The notes under the pieces were generated by a model. That model saw nothing but the letters and a program-made list of their open reading frames with translations, had not been told where the DNA came from and made no database searches. A stretch of DNA of 61,573 nucleotides, from contig MU004241.1 in assembly GCA_010405405.1 (NCBI GenBank), positions 1,275,359 through 1,336,931 of the forward strand. The letters run 5' to 3'. Source of the DNA: Microthyrium microscopicum. Lineage: Eukaryota. A program made the translations under genes and the position numbers. Below are positions 48,304 to 61,573 of this stretch, piece by piece (the stretch's first letter is position 1; every line of letters begins with the position of its first letter).

Positions 48304-50150
48304 TCAAAGAATGTGGAGTCTTTGGATCTTATTGCGATGCTTGAAAATTTCTCCATCCATAATTCCGCCACAGTACGCATTGCCGATAATGCGATATTTG
48401 TTACCATCTAATTTTCGCAGAATCAGGGGCACGTCGAGACCAAGGAGGATAGCCAGAACGTCGCCTTGTGCCAGACCTGGGGGCCCAAGCCCAACCCGGC
48501 CACGCATGCTAATGAAAAGCCTGCGGTGTTGGAGGCATTGCTTGATGGTCGCCACTGCATGCCGAAGAGCAACACTCCTAGTCTCAGTCTCACTGGAATC
48601 AGGGAAGAGCGTGGGCAATTCCTCGCAGACACTCTCGAAATCCCTATCTGTCGCAAGTTGCCAGCCTTCGTCTCTCGTATATTTGCAGCCTTCGCAAGCT
48701 GCTCGTAGCGCGTCTCATTCAATGTCCCTCAAGGTTCTTCGGTGACAAAACACAGAGGTTTGCGCCAGGGATGTAACGTCCCCTATTCGTTGAAGAGTGT
48801 GTATCAAAGCATGAGTCCCTCGAGACTCATCCAACAACTCCTCCGGCTCATGCTGTACAACAAGGTCGAATACGCAGCCAGTGGCCGATAGAGCGATACA
48901 GCCGTCTTGCAGATATAAGAAGTCGAGATTTGAATTTGTCGATCCTGCTGCCCTATACCTTATATCCTCGCGGGTCAACGTTACAAGTGGCCATTGAAAT
49001 GGTTGTGTCCAATCCGGTGCCCAGGATGGTAAGCCTGCAAGTCGATCGTCGGAGCTTTTGTTGTGCATAGTCATGATTGACATGTCCTTCTTTATCAATG
49101 CCATCGCTGTTTCCGTATAGACTTGTAAGCAGGTCTTGGAGTAATGAGGGCAAATTCCAAGATCTAAAGCATCAGAAGCGAATCCTAAGAATGCGAATAC
49201 TCGGTCTCGAGGATCCGAACATTTCAGAACGTTGCTAATGCCGAACGCCTGCTTCATTAAGGTGATCAGTGGAGCACGGTTTCGTAAAGCGTTCAACGTC
49301 AAAAATGCCGCTTCAAATGAGCCTATGTCGATGTCCAAGAGAGAGGCTCCAAGCGTCTCTGATTCTATGTTATTTTCGTCGGTTACCATATCGAGGAACA
49401 GAGAACTTTTCATGGCCATAAAGAGCTGTACAACAAACCTCAGCCACTCAGCTCGAACTCGTTTACGCCCGCAGTGAATCCATATTTCGCTGGATGCTCT
49501 AATCTCTTGCTGAATCCAAACCCTTTGCCAATACGTTCGTCGTACCAAGGCCTTCAAGTCTGATGGTGATGGATAAAAGTCCAAGCCAGCAAAGTCCGAT
49601 TCCGAAACTTTGATTCGTTCAAGTCTACTCCATCGTAGTGCAGTCTCTGGTAATTGTCGTCCAAGTTGTGCAATGAGATCGAAGAGTACATCGCTGTTAT
49701 CCGCACACATTCCCAGCCACGCCGCTACATAAGTCGCCTGGTGATATATGTTCCACATCTGCTGTACTTGACTTGTTTTCTCCTCGTCATCGGTTTGATT
49801 GATGCCTGTCATCTCTTAGCGCAATGTAGCAGGAGCCACATATATCGACTTACAGATAGCACTAGCCCAAATAACCGCATAGACTGCAGACATTGAACTC
49901 AAAGCCTCATAGAGGTTCTCTCCGACTGTGAACTCATATTCTATTCCCTGGTCTTCTACCACGATGAGTCGTTTTTGTGAATCCCCCCATGTGTATGACA
50001 GCGCAATATACGTAGGTCGGTCGTCTAGCGAGGCGTGTTCAATGGAGATGCGGAGCTGCTTTTCATCCGCTACTACATCTTTTAAGACGCTATTACTGGG
50101 GACAAAGTGCCCGTACCCACGTCCCAATTCGGGTCGTCGATACAACCACG
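48304..50150 (-). pseudogene. HET-domain (HET-6-like) heterokaryon-incompatibility gene, 5'-truncated, with an in-frame stop at 48715-48717; intron 49805-49852
   Basis: Motifs YIALSYTWG, AICINQ...EK..QVQQMWNIY, YWQRVWIQQE, CSDPRDRVFA, LPSWAPDW and C-terminal G.DVPLILR...IGNAYCGGIMDGE. The frame continues past a single TGA. No ATG before the AT-rich block. Confidence 0.82.
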
Positions 50151-51479
50151 TTAACTTAGTAAAATCTTACTTAGCTTAACCTTAGCTTAATATACTTACA
50201 ATTATACTACCTTAACTTATACTTACTTATAGCTACTTTATACTTAATTATAGTTACTTATACTTAAATCTAGCTACCTTAGGCTATTTATACTATTACT
50301 TAGTTTTATACTTATAGTTCTAGTTCTAGGCTTCTTATTAGCTAAGTAGCTATGTAGTATATAATAAGAAAAATATTAAGTTAATATAATTCTATTAAGA
50401 GTCTTAGTTTTATAATTATCTTTATAGAATAGCTAGAAGTAATTTACTATTAGTAGCTTACTAATATAATAGAATAAAGTCTTTTAGGTATAGCTATCTA
50501 GAAAGAATAATAGTAGTTAAATTATATATATAAGAATATTTTTTCTATATTACTTATTATTATAAATTTCTTCTAGATATATAGATCTATATTCTTTAAG
50601 CTACTTCTTTATAGACTTCTATTAGTACTAAAGCTATAGTAACGTTATATTACGTATTAGTATATATAGTTTATTTATATACTTATTTATATTCTTACTA
50701 TAGTCCTTTTAGCTAAATTCTTTATTTTAGATTCTATTATAATAATAAGTTTTTACTATACTCTTATATTCTACTATTCTCTAATATTTATTTTATATTA
50801 AGTAAAAAAATCTAGTCTTTCTTTTCTTTTAATATCTTTAGTTAATATAGATTTTTAATATTAAACTAGTAAAATCTTTTTTAGCTTTTATATAACTTAA
50901 TTTATACTACTTTATTAATTTAATTTAAATAATATTAGTAAAAGTTTAGGTTAGCTACAAAATAAGAGATATCTTAGTAAGATAAGTAGATCCTAGTAGG
51001 ATAAGTAGTTCTAAAAGATATCTTATTATAGTCCTAAAACTATATTTATTATTATCTAACTTCTTAGTTAGGTTTAGCTTATATTTTATATACTATTTTA
51101 TAGCCCTAGATTAGGGCTATATTATTATATAATCTATATTACCCTAGCCCTAATAGCTATTAAAATATAGTAATTATTATTTTATCTAAAATAACTTTTA
51201 TAATAACTTCCTAATTAAGCTAGCTATAGTAATAAAACTAGTACTATTAAATAGAGCTCGTTAAGATAAGTATTATTATATATAGGTTATAGATTATTAA
51301 AGCTTTATTACTATTTATAGCCTAGATATAAAAAATATAGCTTAATAACCTAAAGTTTAAATAGTGTTTTATATTTTCTATTCTTACTAACTCTATAAAA
51401 CCTTAATAGATTTAGCTAGTTTTTTTAAAATATTTATAAAATCTATAATTTATATATATAGGTAATATAGTAATAACTA

Positions 51480-53100
51480 TATTAGACTAAATAGCTAATA
51501 ATCTATAAAGAAAAATTAGACTTAGAGAATCTTATTATTAGTTTTAATATTCTTTACTAAACTAAAGATCCTTATTAATTCCTACTAAAATTTAGTTCTT
51601 ATCCTAGTAGTCTTAATAGTCTTAGTAGTAAAGTATAATTTAATAAGATTAGAGATAGACTAACGTCTAATAGTCCTAGTAGGAACCTTATAAGACTATT
51701 AGCTAATCTAAACTTTTACTAATAAAACTATTAGAATTTCTTAAGTTACTAAGGCTTAGAAAGTATATTTATAAATTTTTAGCTAGATACTTATACGCGT
51801 TATAGTATTATTATAGCTAGAAGTATAGCTAAACTAAATAACTAAAATATAGAAGAATAAGACTCTAATTTTAAAAACTATAAAAGCTTACTTAATAGTA
51901 GCTCTTTAGAACTACTTAGTATAGTTAACGTAGTAAGGATATCTCTATCTAGAATATAAAAAGGTATATAAAAAGGATTAGAAATAAATATCTTAAAATA
52001 AGTCTTTTATAATACTATAAAGGAGTTTATTAAGCTAAAGAACTACGTCCTTTATTAAGAGAAAGAGCCTTTAGTAGCTAAATACTCTACTTCTAAATTT
52101 ACTTTTCTTAAAACTATTCTTAATTAGCTTAATAAAATTAAAGTAGTAGTTTAATATTATTTTATTATATTAGCTCTAAAGCTATATTCCTAGATAGTAA
52201 TTACCTTCTATACTAAACTATATATAAGTAAACTAAAAAGTTATTTTATTATTTTACGACTTAAAGTAGAATAATATATAGAGACCTTTTTAAAGGTCCT
52301 TAAGGAACTTAAAAAGATATTTATAGATACTATAAGTATATAATCTCTATAGAGTAGTAATCTTTAAGTCGTCTTTAAAAATACTAAATAAAAGAATTAG
52401 GCTTAGTACTTAACTATTAAAGATATATAGATATTTTAGTATAATTATCTTATTAAAGTAGCTAGCGTATTTTTAAAGAGTATTAATAATAGGGTTTATT
52501 ATAGTAAGAGAGTAGATAATTATAACTTAAAGTTTATTAAGGCTCTAAATAAAGATAACTAGTATATTCTTACTATTACTAAAGTAAGCTAAATTTATAG
52601 TAATAAAACATTAATCTTAAAGAAGAAAAAATTATCTTTTATTATATATTTTCTTATAGAAAGTTTCTAGAAGATTATTATAGCCTAAAGGCTAATAATT
52701 AAGAGCGTATAGTATAGTTATAAACTCTAAGCTATAATGCTAGTAAGTACTTATTATTACTAGTATAGTATTTAGAAATATATATAGTTTTCCTATTTAA
52801 TAGAAGCTTGCTATAGATACTATATAGATAAGTATAATATATAGAATTATAAAATAAAAGATAAAAATAAATAGTACTTAAATTATAGTTATAAATATAA
52901 CTATTAGGATAAATTTTATAGTATTTATAAGAGTATTACTTTAGTAGTAAATATTCTTTAAGTAACTCTATTTAAACGTACTATTAAGTTATAGAATAGC
53001 GTAGCTTAATAGAATCGTAGTAATAGATTCCTAGTATTAAAGAATAAATATATACTTATTACTATACTAAAAGCTAGCTCTATATTTAAGAAAGTAAATA
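51480..53100 (+). mobile_element. RIP-degraded LINE ORF1 (gag)-like coding relic
   Basis: Frame around 52350-52570 reads SSNL*VVF...YNYLIKVASVFLKS...SKRVDN. Reverting transitions gives SGDL...DYPVEVAGVPLK...GKRADN, parallel to the relic at about 56680-56780. Confidence 0.45.
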
Positions 53101-54239
53101 TAGAGGTTTAGATAGAGTTAAATAAGTAGAAAGAAAATTAAATAAAGTAGAAGCGTTTTATAGAATAGTCTATTAATAGCTATAAGATTAATATTTTATA
53201 ATAAATAAATAGACACTAGAGTACTTATAGCGCTCTATTAAGATAAATAGTATAGTTTTATTTCTTTAAAGGTTTCTACTATAAATAGTTAGTATAGTCT
53301 ATATATATTTATTAGAGTAGTATATTTAGACTCCTTATAGGGTCTAAACGAACTAGATAATAAAGAGATTTATATATATATTATTTAATAAATAAAGTAA
53401 GAGTATAAGTTAGCTTTCTTTTTTAAGTACTTAAAAGCTACTTTAATTTAGATTAAAGTACTTTAATTTAGTAGTTAGTATATTATAAAAAAACTATTAT
53501 TAATTAAAGTTATTTAATAATACTATAACTATTTATTACTATAATATATAGTTTTATATCTAAGTACTTAACTTAATATTTAATTTATTAAAATATAGAG
53601 AATAATTAAAATAAATTTACTAATTTAAAATATATTAAATAGAAATTAGAACTAAAACTACTTATAAGGTTAAAATTAATAAAATAAGATAAACTATTAA
53701 AGTACTTTTATAATTTTAGTAAAAAAATATTTTTTAAATAAAATAAATATTTAGAATTCTTAAATAAATCTAATATACTCTATTACTTAAGTAATATTAA
53801 TAGCTAGAATTAGTATATATTTATAATAAATATTATTACTTAAATAGAATAAATACTTTAAATTATTTAATAACTAAAATAATAATTATTATATATATAG
53901 ATATAATAAGTAAAATAGACTTATATTTAATATAATTTAAATATATTTAATAATTTATATAAAATAAATAGTATAAATAACTAGTATACTATAATTACTA
54001 TTATATTATTTATAACTTATATATTTAAAATAATATAAATAATATAATTATTAAAATAGCTATTATAACTTAAATATATTAAATATTTATAATACTATAA
54101 TACTTATAACTAGCTAAATAATAGAAATAATAGAAATTACTTTAATAAAGAATATATATTAAATCTTTTAAACTAGTATAATTCTAAAAATATATTTTAT
54201 ATACTAAATATTTAAAATATTATAATAAATTAAAAGACT

Positions 54240-54539
54240 TAAATTTCTATAAGATTTATAATATTTATAATACTTACTAGATCTTAAATATTTATAATAT
54301 TTTAAATTACTATAATATTAATAATATTTTTAATATTTTTAAAATATTTAATAACTATAATATTTATTATATTTATTATATTTATAATATCTAAAATATT
54401 AATAATTATATAATATTTATAATATTTATAATATTTATAATATTTAAAATATCTATAATATCTTAAATATTTATAATATTTTATATTATCTATAATATTT
54501 AGAATATCTATAATATTTAGAATATTTATAATAATTATA
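54240..54539. repeat. Degenerate 9-bp tandem array (AATATTTAT-like), left part
   Basis: Units such as aatatttat, aatatctat and aatatttag are read directly. Confidence 0.8.
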
Positions 54540-55729
54540 TTTTTATTAAATCTTATTTATTATCTTTTAGCTATGCTAATAGGTTATGTAGATGCTACTC
54601 TTTATAAGTAGGTAAAAACCCTTATCTAATTAGCTACTCTACCTAAATCTAGCTAAGTATAGCTTACTCTAGGCCTAAGGCCTAGTCTAGCTTTAGCTAA
54701 TTTCTATATATTTAGTAAACTAAGGCGCTAACTATATAAGGGAAAACCCTACTATTATATTCTATATACTAATCTATATTAAGGCTAATATTATATCCTA
54801 CTAAGCCTTATTAGCTTTTTAAGCTATAGAAGCTTTAATAAGTTAGGAAGCTAAATTCTAGAAAATATTTAGCCTATTAGCACTTCTCTAGGCTAGTTCT
54901 GTTATAAGTTATTATTCTTCTATTTAGTTTACTACTTTAAGTTCTTAAAGTTACTAATATTATTATTTCCTAAAGAGCTAAGATTCTTTTCTTATTATTA
55001 TATTAGATTCCTTTATTCTTACTATTAAATACTAAATCTAAGGTAGTACTATTAATCTACTAAAGACTATTCGCTATGCTATACTTTGCTTTTAAGCTAA
55101 GATTTAGAGTCCTTTAGCTTAGTATATTCTAAGTTACTTTTCCTAAGTCTACTAACTTATTCTATAGTACTATTTATACTAATCTATAGGTATTATACTT
55201 ACTAAGCTATAGTATTCCTAAATATTATAATTTACTACTATATTATTTAGTCTAATTTTACCTTATATAGCTAGATTTTAAGCTTACTAAGCTAGAGCTA
55301 ATCCTCTAATCTAGTTACTAAAAGCTATAAAAAAGTTATTTTAGTATACTAATTTTACTACGCTTTAATAGTATTATAGCTTATTTTAGTATAGCTTTAT
55401 ATAGCTAGTTTCTAATTATATAATTTAACGCTAGTTCGTTATTAATTAGTAAAGCTTTAATAAGAATAATCTTATAGCTATATATAGTAATTACGTAATA
55501 TAAAATTTACATCTTTCGTAACGTATTAAAAAGAGCTATAGCTCGTCTTCTACACCTGCTAAAAAGGAAAGAATAACCTCCCTAAAAAGGAGTAAACATA
55601 GCTTTAAAAGTAAGTAACGATTACCTTTTTAGAATAGTAAAGGAGACGGGAATCGAACCCGTGCCCTACGGATCTTAACAGATAGGGCCTACTGCGAGAT
55701 TGCAAGTACTACTACTATACTACTCCTCC
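54540..55729 (-). mobile_element. 1.19-kb tRNA-headed SINE-like retroelement
   Basis: The 5' end coincides with G1 of a tRNA-like fold. 3' tail AATAAATAAGATTTAATAAAAA. TATAATAATTATA repeated at 54527-54539 and 55730-55742. It splits a 9-bp array. Confidence 0.65.
55638..55729 (-). ncRNA. tRNA-like sequence (pseudo-tRNA / SINE head), isotype unassignable
   Basis: Acceptor GGAGGAG/CTCCTTT+A. D-arm GTAT-AGTAGTA-GTAC (A-box-like). T-arm ACGGG-TTCGATT-CCCGT (B-box). The anticodon region is expanded and non-canonical. Confidence 0.75.
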
Positions 55730-55990
55730 TATAATAATTATAATATTTTTAATATTTACTATATTTATAATATTTATAATATTTATAAAAGATTAAATAT
55801 CTATAATATTTATAATATATATAATACCTTTAATATTTTTAATATTACTAATATCTTTAATATTTCTAATATTTTTAATATTTAGAATATTAATAATAAC
55901 TTTAATAACTTTAATATCTAAAATATTTAAAATATTTCTTATATTTACTATATTTATAATATTCTAGATACTAATATTAGTATAATATAG
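55730..55990. repeat. Degenerate 9-bp tandem array, right part
   Basis: Same unit as 54240-54539. It gives the spurious NIY/NIF ORF at 55700-55885. Confidence 0.8.
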
Positions 55991-56299
55991 TAGATAGCTT
56001 TAATTACTAAATATAGAGCTATTCTAGAAACTAGCTTTACTAGAATAATAACCTAAATACTTAAAATTATCTAGAATTATTTAGAATTATTTAGAAGAAG
56101 TAGAAGCTTCTATTTATTTCTATTAGAATTAAATCCTTTATTATATTATAGTATTAGATCTTAACTTTATAGACTACTTTATTATAGACGTATTAAGATT
56201 AAGTTTTATAATACTATACTTTTCTTATTATTATTTATAATTTATACCTTCTTTTCTTAGCTTAAGTTCTTATCTATAAAATAGAATAATAAAGTATAA

Positions 56300-59200
56300 T
56301 TTAGATTTTTCTTATTATTAGTAGTATTTATAATATCTTAAAAGATTAAAAAGCTTCTAAGGTTTAGTAGCTTAGTTTCTATCTATTTTAGTTTAATAAA
56401 CTAAATATATATTCTTTCTAGCTAGTTTTTATTACTAGGTTTTATTTATATAATTTATTAGTAATTAGAACCTATATATTTACTTAAATATATAAGACTT
56501 AATTATTAGATCTATATAATTTTAAAAAGATTAAAAAGACTATTTTTTAAGTAATAACTATTAAGCTACTACTTAATAAAAATATTAATATTATAGTTAA
56601 TATATAATTAGATAAGAACTATATCTAAAATAAACTACGCTAAGTAAACTTAAATAAGGTCTAAGTTCTATAATAAAACTATTTAATAAAAATCCTAAGA
56701 ATTCTACTTAAACTAAACGTAACCTATAATAAGAATATAAATAATAATAAACTAATTAAAGAATTAGTTAATAAAAATAAAATAAAGTTTAAATACCTAA
56801 AGATAAAAATAGTCTAATAGCTCTATAAAGGCGTAAAGTATAAATAAGTAAAAGAAAAACTAAAGAAGTAAAGAAAGGTACGTACTAAGGAATTATTTAT
56901 ACTATATTACTTAATAATAATAATAAAGAATAAGATTATCTAAAAGAAGTTCGTTATTAAAGTAGAGAAGCTCTTTATTAAATTATATAATCTAAAATAT
57001 ACTATTAAATAGTACTTCTACTATTAAATCTAAAGCTATATATAAATAACTTATACTTAATATAAACTAAACTATAGTAAATATATAAATAATTATAATA
57101 CTAAAAACTATATTAAGATAGGTCTAATTTAATACTTTAATTATAAAGATAATAAAAGAAGAGGAAGAGAAAAGAAAAAATAAACCTAAAAATACTATAT
57201 ATAATAGAAAAAAATATATAAAATATACTAAACTTACTTTAAGAATATAAAAGAATTCTAAAGAATAAATAAAAAATATATAAAATAAATAAAAGCTATA
57301 TTATATACTTAAACTATATTAATTTAGCTTATAGATAATAATAAATATACTATAATAAATAGTATAAAGAAAAGAAAAATAAAAACTAAGAATCTTAAAA
57401 GGCTATTAATATTATAAGAAGTAAAAAATAAAATACGTAATAATTTAGTCTAAGATACTTAAAGATTAATTATAAGTATATTTAACTTTAATAAAAGTAA
57501 TAATAACTTATAAACTATAAAAAATAATACTCTAAAAGAATAATAAAGAAATAACTATAAAAAAAATAAATTAAGTTATAAATAACTTTAAACTAACCTC
57601 TAATAATAAAATAAGTAAAATTAAAATAATAGACTTAAATAAATAGTATTAATATTATATAATATAACTATAAAAAGTTAAATATAAGAAAAGTAAAGCT
57701 ATTCTTTAATTTATTAAATAATACTAAGTAACTAATTATAGTAATCTAAGACTTTAAAAGAATTATAAAGCTAAAAGAAATATACTATTTTCTAACTATA
57801 CTTTAGTATATAATTAGAATAATTAATTAAGAATAAATTTTATAATAAATAAGGCACTTAATATAAAAAACTAGTAAGTAAAATATTATAACTAATTTAT
57901 CTTAATACTATATCTTTAGTATAGATATATAATACTAATAATTATTAATATATATAGTAAAGGCTTAATAGTAAGTAATTATAACTATTTTACTAAATAC
58001 TTAATACTAATAAAAGTAATTAATAAAGTAGAAAAAAAGATTCTATTAGTAAAAAACTTTAACTACTACTACTATTAATAAAAAAGTATAATATTAGCTA
58101 CTAAACTCTAAATAAATACTTTACTTTATAATATAATTTAATAAAAACTCTACCTAAGTATACTAAAAGGAGAATTAATTTATAAGTTATATAAAGAAAA
58201 GAGAATAGAAGTAATAAAAATAATAATTAATCTTATATTTATATTTTAATTTCTTTAAAAAAGACTAAAGTATTATAGTTTAATTAATATCTAAATATTA
58301 ATAGAAAATTATATTCTAATTATAATTTAGCTTATTTTAAAATAAAAGAAGTATATACTAAAAGTATAGTATAATATATAAAAACTAGATATAAAATAAT
58401 TTATTAAATATATAAATAATAGCTTATAGAATATTAAAGATATATTAATAAAGGCTCTATATAAGATAATAATAAAAGTAGTAAAGATTTACTATTTAAA
58501 AATAAAACTCTTAAAATAAGCTTTATATAAGTAGTTACTTATAATTACTCTATTAATATAAGAAAAGTATTATATAAAAAAAGATACTTTTAAATAAGAA
58601 ATAACTAAAATAAGTATATATATAAATTAGTTATAGCCTAGCTAAGAAAATCTTTATATTAAAATAAAGTAGTATTCTAATAGACCTTTATAAAAAAGAT
58701 TATAAAGAATTATAAATACTATAAGAACTAAGGCTTATAAAGAATAAGTAAATAAATAAAAGCTAAAGCTAGTAAACTAAAAGAAGACCTATACTTATTA
58801 GTACTTAAATAAATAACTAATAATAACTATATCTATAATAACTAAAGTAAGGTAAATATACTATTTATAAAGTTTTTTCCTTAAACTAAAGTAGTAAACC
58901 TAAGTAATATAAAAGCTACTATTCTACTTCTAAAACTAAAGATAAACTATAAAGTAATAATAAAAGAGATAAATTATATAATTAGTAGCTTTTTAAATTA
59001 TAAGATAATAGAACCTATTAATATATTAAATAAGGTCTTAAAGGCTCTTAAGCTTAAAGTATAGCTAGAAAAGAAAAGTAATAATCTAAAACTAATAAAA
59101 TTTAATAAAAGACTAGTACTTATAATTAATAGAATACTAATAAGTAGTATAATTTTAAAATACTTAAGGTAATTCTATATACTAATATTAAAAAAACTAA

Positions 59201-59600
59201 GTAAGAAAGATTACTTATTACTATTAGCCTACTAGCTAATTATTTTTAAGAATATAATAGTAAAGTTAATTAAAAAAATTATTATTAATAAACTTACCTA
59301 ACTTATAAAAGATAATAATTTATTACTTTAAAACTAAATAAATACTAAGGTAGAGTAGTTAATATTAATAATAGTATAGCTCTTAAAGAATACTATTAAA
59401 GTAATATAAAAGAGAAACGTAAGAGCTATAGTATTAGTACTTAGCCTTAACTTTTAAGAAGTATATAATAATATTAATTTAAGGAAGCTTCTTTATATTC
59501 TAAAAATAAAGGAATTCCTCTAATAGCTAATTAATATAATAGTAAGCTTTATTATTAATTATATAACTTAAATTATATTTACTAAGTACTAAAGTCTATA
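56300..59600 (+). mobile_element. RIP-degraded Tad1-like LINE (ORF1, AP endonuclease, first half of RT); boundaries approximate
   Basis: Near 57650 the start resembles (L)QYNC.KS. Near 59000 KIIEPINILNKVLK corresponds to KAPGPDGIPNKVLK. Near 59185 ILKKLSKKDY....AY*LI corresponds to LKKPGKKDY....AYRPI. At 59440 LSLNF*EVYNNI corresponds to LSLDxxGAYDNV. Confidence 0.8.
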
Positions 59601-61573
59601 TTAGGAACTAGGACACCTCTAGTTTAAGATAACTACTAATAGAATATATCTACGTAGAATAAAGCGTTATTAGTTAAGTTAACTAATAATAACCTATTAT
59701 AAATATAGATAGCTTAGTAGAGTCTTTATAGCTTTAAGTAATAAAGAAGAAGAATTATAAAAGTCTAAATAACTTTCTAATAATTATTCTTATTTCTATT
59801 TTTATATATTTATTTAAACTATAATAATTATAGTTTTTACTTACTTAGAATAACCTATTTCTAATATAGTAATTACTTCTTAATTCTTAAGTATCTAAAA
59901 AAATTGTTTTTATTTTTTATCTAATTAGAAACTATATTTAATAGTAAATATTTAAACCTTAACGCCTAGATAGAACTTAGATAGCTATAACTATTAAGCT
60001 AAAAATTATTAATACCTATTATACTCTAAATTAATATATTTAAAGATATATTAAACTTATTTAATATTAAATTAGCTAACTCTAACTTACTTAAATCTAA
60101 AGAAATCTAAAATAACTTTATAATATACTATAAAAAGAAACTTAATATACTTATTAATAAAAAGAAGCTAAAGCTTAAGGTATAAGAACTAATAATAAAA
60201 GCTAGGGTAATTTAGTTTAGTAAGCTTAAAACTACCTAAGAGTTAAAGAACTTTAATTAAGTTAATATAATAAGACTTAATTAATATTTTTTAAACTAAG
60301 CTCTTATTTCCTTAGGACCTTTAAACTAAGATAAGCTTAAAATAGAGCTTTATAAAAGAAAGAGTTTTTAAGAATATATATCTTAAGTTAATAATATTAA
60401 ATAAAAGTTTATTAAATCCTTTTATTAAGAAAGTACTTATAATTAATAATTCTACTAATATATTTATAAATATAATTAACTTAAGAAAAAGCTATTATAA
60501 ATAGAATTAGATAATCTTATTTTTTATAAAGAGTTTTAAAACTTAAGATTCTAAAAAATATAGTAAATAGTTTAAGATTATACGTTAAGCTATCTAAGCT
60601 ACTTTATAAAGTAAAAATATATTACTTTTAAGAAGTTCTAAATAGTTAAATTAAGTTAATACTACCCTTAGGAGCTTTATAATAACTTTTTTAAGTTTTA
60701 AAAGAAATAAAAGTATAATAACTAAAAGAATTACTTCTTTTAGTTTTATAGAAGCTTCTTAGAAATATATAGAAAAAGATTCTCTTTAATAAAAAGTTTA
60801 TTACTATTATAATTAAAAAAGTCTTTAAAAAAGCTAACTTATATTAGACTTTTAATTTTATAGAAACTAAAGCCTATTTTATTCTTAAAAAGATAAATCT
60901 AAGATAATCTTTCTTAAAATAATACTTATACTTCTTAGAAGATAAGTATAAATATAAAAAGGGCTTAAAAAAGCTAAAAATATTTAAAAAGTCTTTCTAC
61001 TTTTTAAAAAATAGTAAAGTAAAATAAGCTATATTTAAAATAACTTAAAATATAGATATTCTATTAAAGTCTAACTTAAAAAAGGTTAAATACTTTAAAT
61101 ATAGTAAACTTTACTTTAAAATAAAATACTCTAAGTTATAAAGAAAAGATAAAACTATAAAGTTATAAATTAGAACTTAGTAGCCTCTTTTATTAATAAA
61201 ATAGCTTAACTTAATACTAAATAGCTTTATAAAACTATTATTATAAATATCTTAAAGACATTAAAAGCTAAGAATAATAACTTATCTAGTAAAATAGACT
61301 TTAAAAATAAAATTAAAGTAAATATACTTATAAAAAAGTCTAAGAAATAATAAAAGCTAAGAAGCTTTATTCTTAAATATTATAGTTAATTATAAGTTAT
61401 ATTTTAATATTATAGATATTAAGCTAGCTAAAAGACTTTAGCTTTATATTATTTTTCTCTACTTTTAAAGCATTATTGTACTAAAAGATTAATTTCTTAG
61501 AATTATTCTATAAAACTATTATTATTAGATTCGTCTTATTAAGACTATTATAATAGTATAACTTTTAACTAGA
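59600..61573. mobile_element. Further RIP-degraded element interrupting the LINE RT; class not determined
   Basis: RT similarity stops before the expected PQGSxLSP and YADD motifs, and different RIP-type sequence follows. Confidence 0.4.

Follow-up and report, generated by a model that had tools for sequence, protein, structure and literature searches.

The window (the whole stretch of Microthyrium microscopicum DNA that was analysed, 61,573 bp) contains an 11.5-kb AT-rich block in which one insertion, exact at both ends and bounded by a 13-bp target-site duplication, interrupts a 9-bp tandem array. The inserted element runs on the minus strand from 55729 to 54540, a length of 1190 bp. Tandem Repeats Finder recovers the host minisatellite as two halves of period 9, one 3' of the element (54207–54539, 37.1 copies) and the other 5' of it (55730–55963, 26.0 copies), and the array breaks exactly at 54539/54540 and at 55729/55730. 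The 13 bp that adjoin the element on its 5' side (55730–55742, TATAATTATTATA on the minus strand) match exactly the 13 bp that adjoin it on its 3' side (54527–54539), and when the element is excised together with one copy of the 13-mer, the 9-bp units come back into phase. Within the array the 13-mer occupies one of the 321 positions of the 54207–54539 half and one of the 222 positions of the 55730–55963 half; the window holds one more exact copy (59820–59832), which belongs to no array. Identical 13-mer pairs make up 160 of the 71,262 possible between the two halves (0.22%), and 38 distinct 13-mers are common to both. The original prediction had described an element with exact boundaries, a flanking 13-bp repeat and an array that resumes on both sides, and the coordinates, the tandem repeat analysis and the array phase all agree with it. 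With this minisatellite as the target, the boundaries of the insertion leave unusually little room for doubt. An internal repeat search of the element revealed neither terminal inverted repeats nor LTR-like ends, only short low-complexity matches, and the duplication of 13 bp, the lack of terminal repeats and the RIP pattern described below led us to reject a Helitron and a DNA transposon as well as a solo LTR.

The first inserted base is, to the nucleotide, G1 of a tRNA-like head that extends to a discriminator A at 55638 (55638–55729, minus strand). ARAGORN calls this fold (55637–55729, minus strand) as the single tRNA-like gene of the entire window, and the Rfam tRNA family RF00005 matches 55638–55729 on the same strand over model positions 1–71 of 71 with 40.1 bits (gathering score 29, E 1e-5), the sole Rfam match at E ≤ 1 within 49500–61573. 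In the ARAGORN cloverleaf the anticodon is CTC and the variable arm is over-long at 26 nt (6-bp stem, 12-nt loop); six of the 26 pairs in the fold are G.T, with one A.A mismatch where the anticodon loop closes. The head carries both Pol III boxes. Box B (GGTTCGATTCC, 55649–55659, minus strand) is an exact match to GGTTCGANNCC, the only one on either strand of the window, and the box A-like site (TAGTATAGTAG, 55712–55722, minus strand) agrees with TRGCNNAGTGG at 9 of 11 positions, its two mismatches (position 11 has T in place of C, position 17 has A in place of G) both being RIP-type transitions. Just after the discriminator lies CTA (55635–55637, minus strand), possibly a CCA end altered by CpA-to-TpA RIP, but this trinucleotide is weak evidence for such an end because C[CT]A is frequent in the element (50 of 1188 positions, 4.2%). 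Before RIP the anticodon would have been CTC or CCC, both of which belong to class I tRNAs. Since RIP makes no indels, a class I anticodon beside so long a variable arm points to a SINE-type head that has evolved, not to a freshly copied tRNA. A functional nuclear tRNA gene was also considered and was rejected on the 6/26 G.T pairs, the A.A mismatch, the 26-nt arm beside a class I anticodon, the score of 40 bits and the position of the first run of at least four T, which comes at element position 121, 29 nt past the discriminator. A metagenome scan with a 22-nt T-arm/acceptor pattern returned 38 loci and no relatives of the body. In 38 of 38 the similarity is confined to element positions 61–111, that is, the T-arm/acceptor end and the first trailer bases, and the tRNAs that ARAGORN calls at these loci, where there are any, sit in clusters typical of prokaryotes or phages.

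At its other end the element closes with an A-rich 3' tail of 22 nt (AATAAATAAGATTTAATAAAAA, 54540–54561, minus strand). The tail includes two AATAAA motifs, which are no evidence of a signal because the motif is common across the AT-rich block (3.6 per kb). Between head and tail lies a RIP-saturated, non-coding body of obscure origin (54562–55634, minus strand), as judged from dinucleotides, Pfam, purine/pyrimidine tests and window comparisons. When the element was compared with the window by blastn it matched only itself, the next match being 79 bp at 76% (40.1 bits), and a RIP-proof comparison with purine/pyrimidine-recoded blastn gave a best score in the window of 54.0 bits, a value reached by 29 of 30 shuffles (range 52.0–67.9). 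A 3' region shared with a partner LINE is a trait of a minority of SINE families, and the window has no match to the tail of the element. The sense strand contains 10 runs of at least four T, and when each T before A is counted as a former C, seven such runs (one of them of five) still stand, the first at position 142. As read from these letters, the T-runs would be awkward for a full-length uninterrupted Pol III transcript of the element and argue against one.

The idea that the element was possibly once protein-coding was not borne out. It had been put forward for a frame starting at an ATG near 55512, and an ATG is indeed present there, at element position 218, yet TAA comes directly after it and the frame has 38 stops in 324 codons. 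Per 396 codons there are 43 (the ATG frame), 64 and 59 stops in the sense frames and 34, 39 and 49 in the antisense frames, and none of the six stays open for more than 43 codons. The purine/pyrimidine skeleton is informative on coding because RIP transitions cannot erase codon periodicity there, and the phase test, applied to nine real ORFs in the window, gave p < 0.05 for eight. For positions 218–1190 of the element the same test gave chi2 1.5 (p 0.47), and 900-bp windows sliding inside the element reached chi2 values of only 0.0–3.3. Positions 93–1190 gave chi2 1.7, whereas ORF pieces of about 1.1 kb gave at least 3.1 in 15 of 15 cases. Read with X at stops, the six frames of 50000–61573 gave no Pfam family (0 at E ≤ 1), and phmmer matched the proposed frame, likewise with X at stops, to 0 of 1,835,955,588 protein representatives at E ≤ 0.001. 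An autonomous LINE or other protein-coding retroelement was rejected, every frame having 34–64 stops per 396 codons.

The dinucleotides carry the pattern of RIP, with a TpA/ApT ratio of 1.4–2.4 and CpA+TpG nearly absent. Surviving CpA+TpG number nine in positions 1–220, four in positions 221–1120 (against 202 TpA) and three in the last 70 bp, and the difference in survival between the 5' end and the body is significant (Fisher p 8e-6). RIP can spill out of repeats into neighbouring single-copy DNA, according to the part of the source drawn on here (PMC3105345), and the gradient in the element, its middle saturated and its ends spared, is the reverse of what is expected for spread from the flanks. 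Such a gradient suggests that the element itself was once present in more than one copy, and this RIP pattern is the one ground for speaking of a family; alternatively, the lightly mutated first 220 bp could mean that the head lay outside the repeated unit. The element has a GC content of 27.2%, compared with 17.0% for the rest of the block, and 12 of the 12 highest-GC 100-bp windows of the block begin within it. No other DNA of the block is so little degraded, which suggests, in relative age, a younger insert in an older, fully degraded block. Four sequencing runs, all of one sample in one study, contained 0.39–0.56 of the words sampled; as the assembly may derive from them, these runs do not count as independent.

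The original prediction held that SINEs are rarely described in ascomycetes, which is overstated: the part of one survey considered here names the SINEs or SINE-like elements MgSINE, mgsr1, Foxy, Egr1, EGH24, nrs1, SINE2-1_BG and the AfuSINEs (PMC5063351). The lengths given there for fungal SINEs are 140–900 bp (PMC5063351). SINEBase sets a limit of <1 kb (<700 bp in a narrower wording), its 175 families span 75–662 nt, and its definition includes a 100-copy criterion (PMC3531059). With 1190 bp between the duplication copies, the element lies above both of these ranges and exceeds the formal <1 kb limit, and on account of that limit we call it SINE-like and not a SINE. For the head, SINEBase requires that 60 nt or more be at least 60% identical to a tRNA species (PMC3531059), and here the comparison was with the generic Rfam tRNA model (40.1 bits, full length). 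The layout of head, body and tail is common to the element and SINEBase SINEs, 41% of whose families combine a tRNA-derived head, a body whose origin is unknown and a tail, the commonest SINE pattern (PMC3531059). MgSINE (472 bp), Foxy, AfuSINE2 (140–493 bp) and SINE2-1_BG, as far as the excerpted descriptions go, resemble the element in their A/B-box tRNA head and unrelated body, in an A-rich or simple-repeat 3' end and in being non-coding, and AfuSINE2 has duplications of 4–14 bp; their presumed dependence on LINEs of the Tad and I clades is a further likeness (PMC5063351). In contrast to these SINEs as so described, the element is 2–8 times longer, has an over-long variable arm, is RIP-degraded and lies in a window with no LINE-like 3' match. 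Closer in size are mgsr1 (800 bp), Egr1 (700 bp) and EGH24 (900 bp), which in the same excerpt are likewise non-coding, retroposon-like and interspersed, come from ascomycetes and are near 1 kb, although the element is some 300 bp longer and the comparison is by description only (PMC5063351).

Based on the structure of the locus and these comparisons, we propose, with a probability of roughly 60%, that a non-autonomous non-LTR retroposon, non-coding and with a tRNA-like head, left this copy, now dead; it would have moved by a SINE-like mechanism and is longer than a SINE. The tRNA-like head, A-rich tail and target-site duplication had been taken as a LINE-type retroposition signature, and this reading is supported, the head, its boxes, the 22-nt A-rich end and an exact 13-bp duplication all being present. 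In the sections of the sources consulted, LINE insertions have 10–20-bp duplications and A-rich ends (PMC2104539), and an I-clade LINE of A. fumigatus makes 13-bp duplications while those of the AfuSINEs are 4–14 bp (PMC5063351); the duplication and the A-rich end seen here fit LINE insertions. We infer an RNA intermediate, a polymerase that made it, a LINE enzyme that copied it and membership in a multi-copy family. In the mechanism that we envisage, the template RNA would have had the G1 of a diverged tRNA-like module as its 5' end and an A-rich 3' end, and it may have come either from Pol III by way of the internal A and B boxes or from a longer transcript processed at the tRNA-like fold. 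A LINE-encoded endonuclease and reverse transcriptase would then have copied this RNA by target priming at a staggered break in the 9-bp minisatellite, duplicating 13 bp, with an AT-rich block that was presumably already degraded as the target. RIP would have mutated the element afterwards, saturating its middle and sparing its ends. The suggestion that an adjacent Tad1-like LINE had possibly mobilised the element was not supported, as no Tad1-like or other LINE is recognisable in the six X-read frames of the 11.5-kb block (0 Pfam families at E ≤ 1) and the window has no match to the element or its tail.

The main rival is a template-switch chimera of a tRNA with another RNA, that is, a one-off retrocopy for which a LINE reverse transcriptase, at work on a 5'-truncated repeated RNA (the 3' part of a LINE or an abundant non-coding RNA), would have switched to a tRNA or tRNA-like RNA, the product integrating with the 13-bp duplication. 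Known chimeras, in the part of the source used here, have a full-length small RNA 5' and a truncated RNA 3', in the same orientation and between short direct repeats (PMC2104539). One filamentous ascomycete has documented cases flanked by 14-bp repeats, the WEIRD/Mg-SINE/MGL chimeras of Magnaporthe being LINE-made joins of a complete 5' small or non-coding RNA to another (PMC2104539). A head that extends from G1 as far as the discriminator, with CTA next to it (the form that CCA takes after a CpA-to-TpA change), agrees with such an origin, as does the far lighter RIP of the head and the next ~125 bp relative to the body, which is expected if the 3' part alone was repeated. However, the 5' module of the element is a non-canonical tRNA-like sequence, unlike the small RNAs of the Magnaporthe chimeras as there described, and RIP cannot make a head that joins a CTC or CCC class I anticodon to a variable arm of 26 nt and has an A.A mismatch besides; the CTA would occur by chance about 4% of the time. 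The 3' module, again in contrast to those chimeras, matches no LINE or transcript in the Pfam and window searches, and the 3' part of a LINE, being mostly ORF2, should have kept the periodicity that positions 93–1190 do not display. The last 70 bp are RIP-light too, which fits a repeated unit whose edge coincides with the 3' end of the element itself. We consider a chimera of this kind unlikely, though worth keeping in view. As regards a truncated RNA as its 3' part, Pfam, periodicity and phmmer gave no signal, and RIP may hide homology.

A rearrangement that carried a tRNA gene and neighbouring DNA into the array, or a nuclear mitochondrial copy, would do away with retroposition and leave the 13-mer shared by chance. 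The flanks are repetitive enough to have 38 distinct 13-mers in common, and the AT-rich block resembles fungal mitochondrial DNA, but the 13-mer in question is unique in each half and lies exactly at both junctions, excision restores the phase, and the tRNA-like start coincides with the junction to the base. The head is also unlike a working tRNA gene in its late T-run, G.T pairs and score; Rfam and Pfam find no other RNA families (rRNA included) and no mitochondrial protein families in 49.5–61.5 kb; and the dinucleotides are those of RIP. We regard an origin without retroposition as highly improbable, and a nuclear mitochondrial copy was rejected on the 13-bp duplication, the RIP dinucleotides and the absence of organelle genes. 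Hardly credible, in our judgement, is a tRNA-promoter element with a former gene of ~280 aa whose start would be the ATG at 55512. Among the sense frames this one does have the lowest number of stops, all of them TAA or TAG and so derivable by RIP from CAA, CAG or TGG, but the same argument fits any frame, and on the antisense strand two frames out of three contain fewer; the ATG that runs at once into TAA, the 38 stops, the p of 0.47 and the empty Pfam and phmmer searches all stand against it.

Our proposal of a dead tRNA-headed retroposon describes a tidy, fairly ordinary relic, and as a single dead copy with neither coding capacity nor an identified partner LINE its wider importance is limited. 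More tentatively, and with the odds against it, the element may be one member of a family, as yet undescribed, of non-coding retroposons that are tRNA-headed and long (>1 kb), in a RIP-competent ascomycete, with a head derived from a mature CCA-bearing tRNA and an RNA made either by Pol III reading through short T-runs or by Pol II and trimmed to G1 by RNase P. Set against a multi-copy family, the element is a single copy within the window by both blastn and the purine/pyrimidine comparison. Because the boundaries are unambiguous, the locus would make a good presence/absence marker between isolates, and if other copies exist it would offer a clean case for dating insertion against RIP. Further copies would also mean that fungal tRNA-headed retroposons extend past 1 kb, and a family of such long elements, if real, would add a size class and a route of biogenesis beyond the formal definition of a SINE.

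The element runs for 1190 bp along the minus strand from 55729 down to 54540, starting with GGAGGAGTAG and ending in AATAAATAAGATTTAATAAAAA. It is a genuine retroposed insertion, with clean boundaries and a tRNA-like head, that has been killed by RIP, the C-to-T-type mutation process. It cuts a period-9 array exactly at its two ends, with one half at 54207-54539 (37.1 copies) and the other at 55730-55963 (26.0 copies; Tandem Repeats Finder), and this minisatellite of about 63 units in total, such as AATATTATA, with a GC content of 5.5%, is its insertion target. An exact copy of the 13-mer TATAATTATTATA lies immediately before G1, the first base of the element (55730-55742), and another immediately after the tail (54527-54539). 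Each array half contains the 13-mer once, among 321 positions in one and 222 in the other, identical 13-mer pairs between the halves make up 160 of 71,262 (0.22%), and when the segment plus one 13-mer is deleted in silico the 9-bp units continue in phase. Because the bases flanking the two copies differ, the duplication does not extend beyond 13 bp. The start of the only tRNA-like sequence in the window coincides to the base with the junction defined by the array, and it is very unlikely that it would match this independently defined point by chance. Taken together, the rarity of the 13-mer in each half, the restored phase and the tRNA-like start at the junction identify the segment as one insertion that duplicated 13 bp of its target site. 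Hence, the exact boundaries of the original prediction hold (the array is split at 54539/54540 and 55729/55730), and so does its reading of the flanking 13-mer as more than an array unit. A third exact copy at 59820-59832, outside any array, is most likely due to chance, given such AT-rich DNA.

The element bears the marks of LINE-driven, target-primed reverse transcription, namely the 13-bp duplication, an A-rich 3' end and a 5' terminus on the first base of a Pol III-type RNA module. Terminal inverted repeats, LTR-like ends and strong internal structure were not found in it. Duplications of 10-20 bp and A-rich ends are among the features described for LINE insertions (PMC2104539), and the flanking duplications reported for Aspergillus fumigatus include those of an I-clade LINE (13 bp) and of tRNA-related SINEs (4-14 bp) (PMC5063351).

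The window comes from a filamentous ascomycete, and the domains encoded by the ORFs of positions 1-50,000 include fungal-specific transcription factor and HET domains. GC content lies at 41-54% as far as 50,000 and at 13-24% from 50,001 onwards, and the element sits within this AT-rich block. The compositional boundary at 49000-51000 is sharp (46% GC at 49001-50000 versus 24% at 50001-51000) and has a HET-domain ORF directly beside it, on the minus strand at 48715-49815. Next to the 9-bp array, at 53922-54132, lie other overlapping tandem arrays (periods 14, 18, 44, and 53), which makes this part of the block a mosaic of AT-only satellites. The body of the element (element positions 221-1120, counted from G1) is RIP-saturated, with 4 surviving CpA+TpG beside 202 TpA and a (CpA+TpG)/(ApC+GpT) ratio of 0.06, while 9 CpA+TpG survive in the first 220 bp and 3 in the last 70 bp (5' end versus body, Fisher p 8e-6). 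The median 200-bp window of the block has zero surviving CpA/TpG, and the only one of 111 with at least 6 lies in the head (55501-55700). The element has a GC content of 27.2%, compared with 17.0% elsewhere in the block, and all 12 of the block's highest-GC 100-bp windows start within it. The likely order is thus that the block was degraded first, the element inserted next and its own mutation came last. Mutation peaks in the middle of the element and is least at its two ends, whereas spill-over from the flanks would give the reverse pattern; this tentatively suggests that the element itself was recognized as a repeat, a soft reading since RIP can extend into neighbouring single-copy DNA (PMC3105345) and the weakly mutated head may instead indicate a repeated unit confined to the body.

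The head is the one tRNA-like gene that ARAGORN finds in the whole window (55637-55729, minus strand). It matches the Rfam tRNA model over its full length (55638-55729, minus strand; 1-71 of 71; 40.1 bits against a gathering score of 29; E 1e-5), the sole Rfam match at E≤1 in 49,500-61,573. The ARAGORN cloverleaf has a 7-bp acceptor stem, a 4-bp D stem, a 5-bp T stem, a four-pair anticodon stem closed by an A.A mismatch, the anticodon CTC and a variable arm with a 6-bp stem and a 12-nt loop; G.T pairs account for 6 of the 26, in keeping with C-to-T changes. Box B (GGTTCGATTCC) is the sole exact match to GGTTCGANNCC across the two strands of the window, and box A agrees with TRGCNNAGTGG at 9 of 11 positions, both mismatches being RIP-type transitions. 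The pre-RIP anticodon must have been either CTC or CCC, and each of these is a class I anticodon. Class I tRNAs have no long variable arms, and RIP makes no insertions; the head is therefore likely to be a tRNA-derived module that had diverged, and not a recent copy of a cellular tRNA. Directly after the discriminator A comes CTA, which a CpA-to-TpA change would produce from CCA, but C[CT]A is present at 50 of 1188 positions (4.2%), so the CTA is no more than a hint of CCA. The sense strand has 10 runs of at least four T, and 7 of these (one of five T) remain when each T before A is counted as a former C, the first at element position 142. Such runs are awkward for uninterrupted transcription by Pol III, and it might be speculated that the RNA was instead made by Pol II and then trimmed at the tRNA-like fold.

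It had also been suggested that the element once encoded a protein of about 280 residues, which we now regard as very improbable. The proposed ATG at 55512 is present and the next codon is TAA; its frame has 38 stops (19 TAA and 19 TAG) in 324 codons, no outlier by stops among the element's frames, each with 34-64 per 396 codons; across all of them the longest open stretch is 43 codons. Since RIP can turn sense codons into TAA and TAG, every frame is open to de-RIPping, and that argument carries no weight. The purine/pyrimidine pattern by codon position, which RIP transitions cannot erase, is significant (p<0.05) in 8 of 9 window ORFs and gives chi2 of at least 3.1 in all 15 ORF pieces of about 1.1 kb. 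The element gives 1.5-3.0 (p 0.23-0.47) and 0.0-3.3 in 900-bp sliding windows; one of four 400-bp sub-windows (positions 601-1000) reaches p 0.038, which is not significant after four tests. It should be noted that the chi2 of about 13-15 at 55101-56450 arises solely because the array period is divisible by three, a caution for reuse of this test. Pfam (E≤1, six frames of 50,000-61,573 with X at stops) returned no family, and phmmer of the proposed frame matched none of 1,835,955,588 representatives at E≤0.001.

An adjacent Tad1-like LINE, proposed as the mobilizing partner, was not recovered: the same Pfam search recognized neither a reverse transcriptase nor any other domain in the block, nothing else in the window resembles the element by blastn (best non-self match 40.1 bits), and the best purine/pyrimidine-recoded match (blind to RIP), at 54.0 bits, was matched by 29 of 30 shuffles. 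Two block stretches, 51500-53300 and 58550-59900, retain codon-like three-base periodicity (peak chi2 in 900-bp windows of 17.7 and 15.8, respectively) and may be relics of coding transposons, although Pfam recognized nothing in either. A metagenome scan with the T-arm/acceptor pattern gave 38 loci, with similarity confined to element positions 61-111, the T-arm/acceptor end and the first trailer bases. This single scan, the window and published papers are the basis of the whole analysis.

The main rival is a one-off bipartite chimera generated by template switching, for which there is precedent in Magnaporthe chimeras with 14-bp flanking repeats (PMC2104539). We consider this unlikely, as the head is non-canonical, the 3' end is RIP-light and the body lacks codon periodicity. 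Ascomycete SINEs in print include MgSINE (472 bp), mgsr1 (800 bp), Egr1 (700 bp), EGH24 (900 bp), nrs1 (500 bp), AfuSINE2 (140-493 bp, one with a Tad1-like 3' end), Foxy, and SINE2-1_BG (PMC5063351). In the SINEBase text as cited here, where the word "fungi" is absent, a SINE is under 1 kb, usually with at least 100 copies, and its head has at least 60% identity to a tRNA over 60 nt (PMC3531059). The element shares with such SINEs the head-body-tail layout and the insertion marks but, at 1190 bp, exceeds the 1-kb limit. Thus, of the unusually long SINE that had been envisaged, the layout and the marks of insertion stand and the SINE label does not: the element is SINE-like in mechanism and, with a probability of about 0.6, a member of a SINE-like family.
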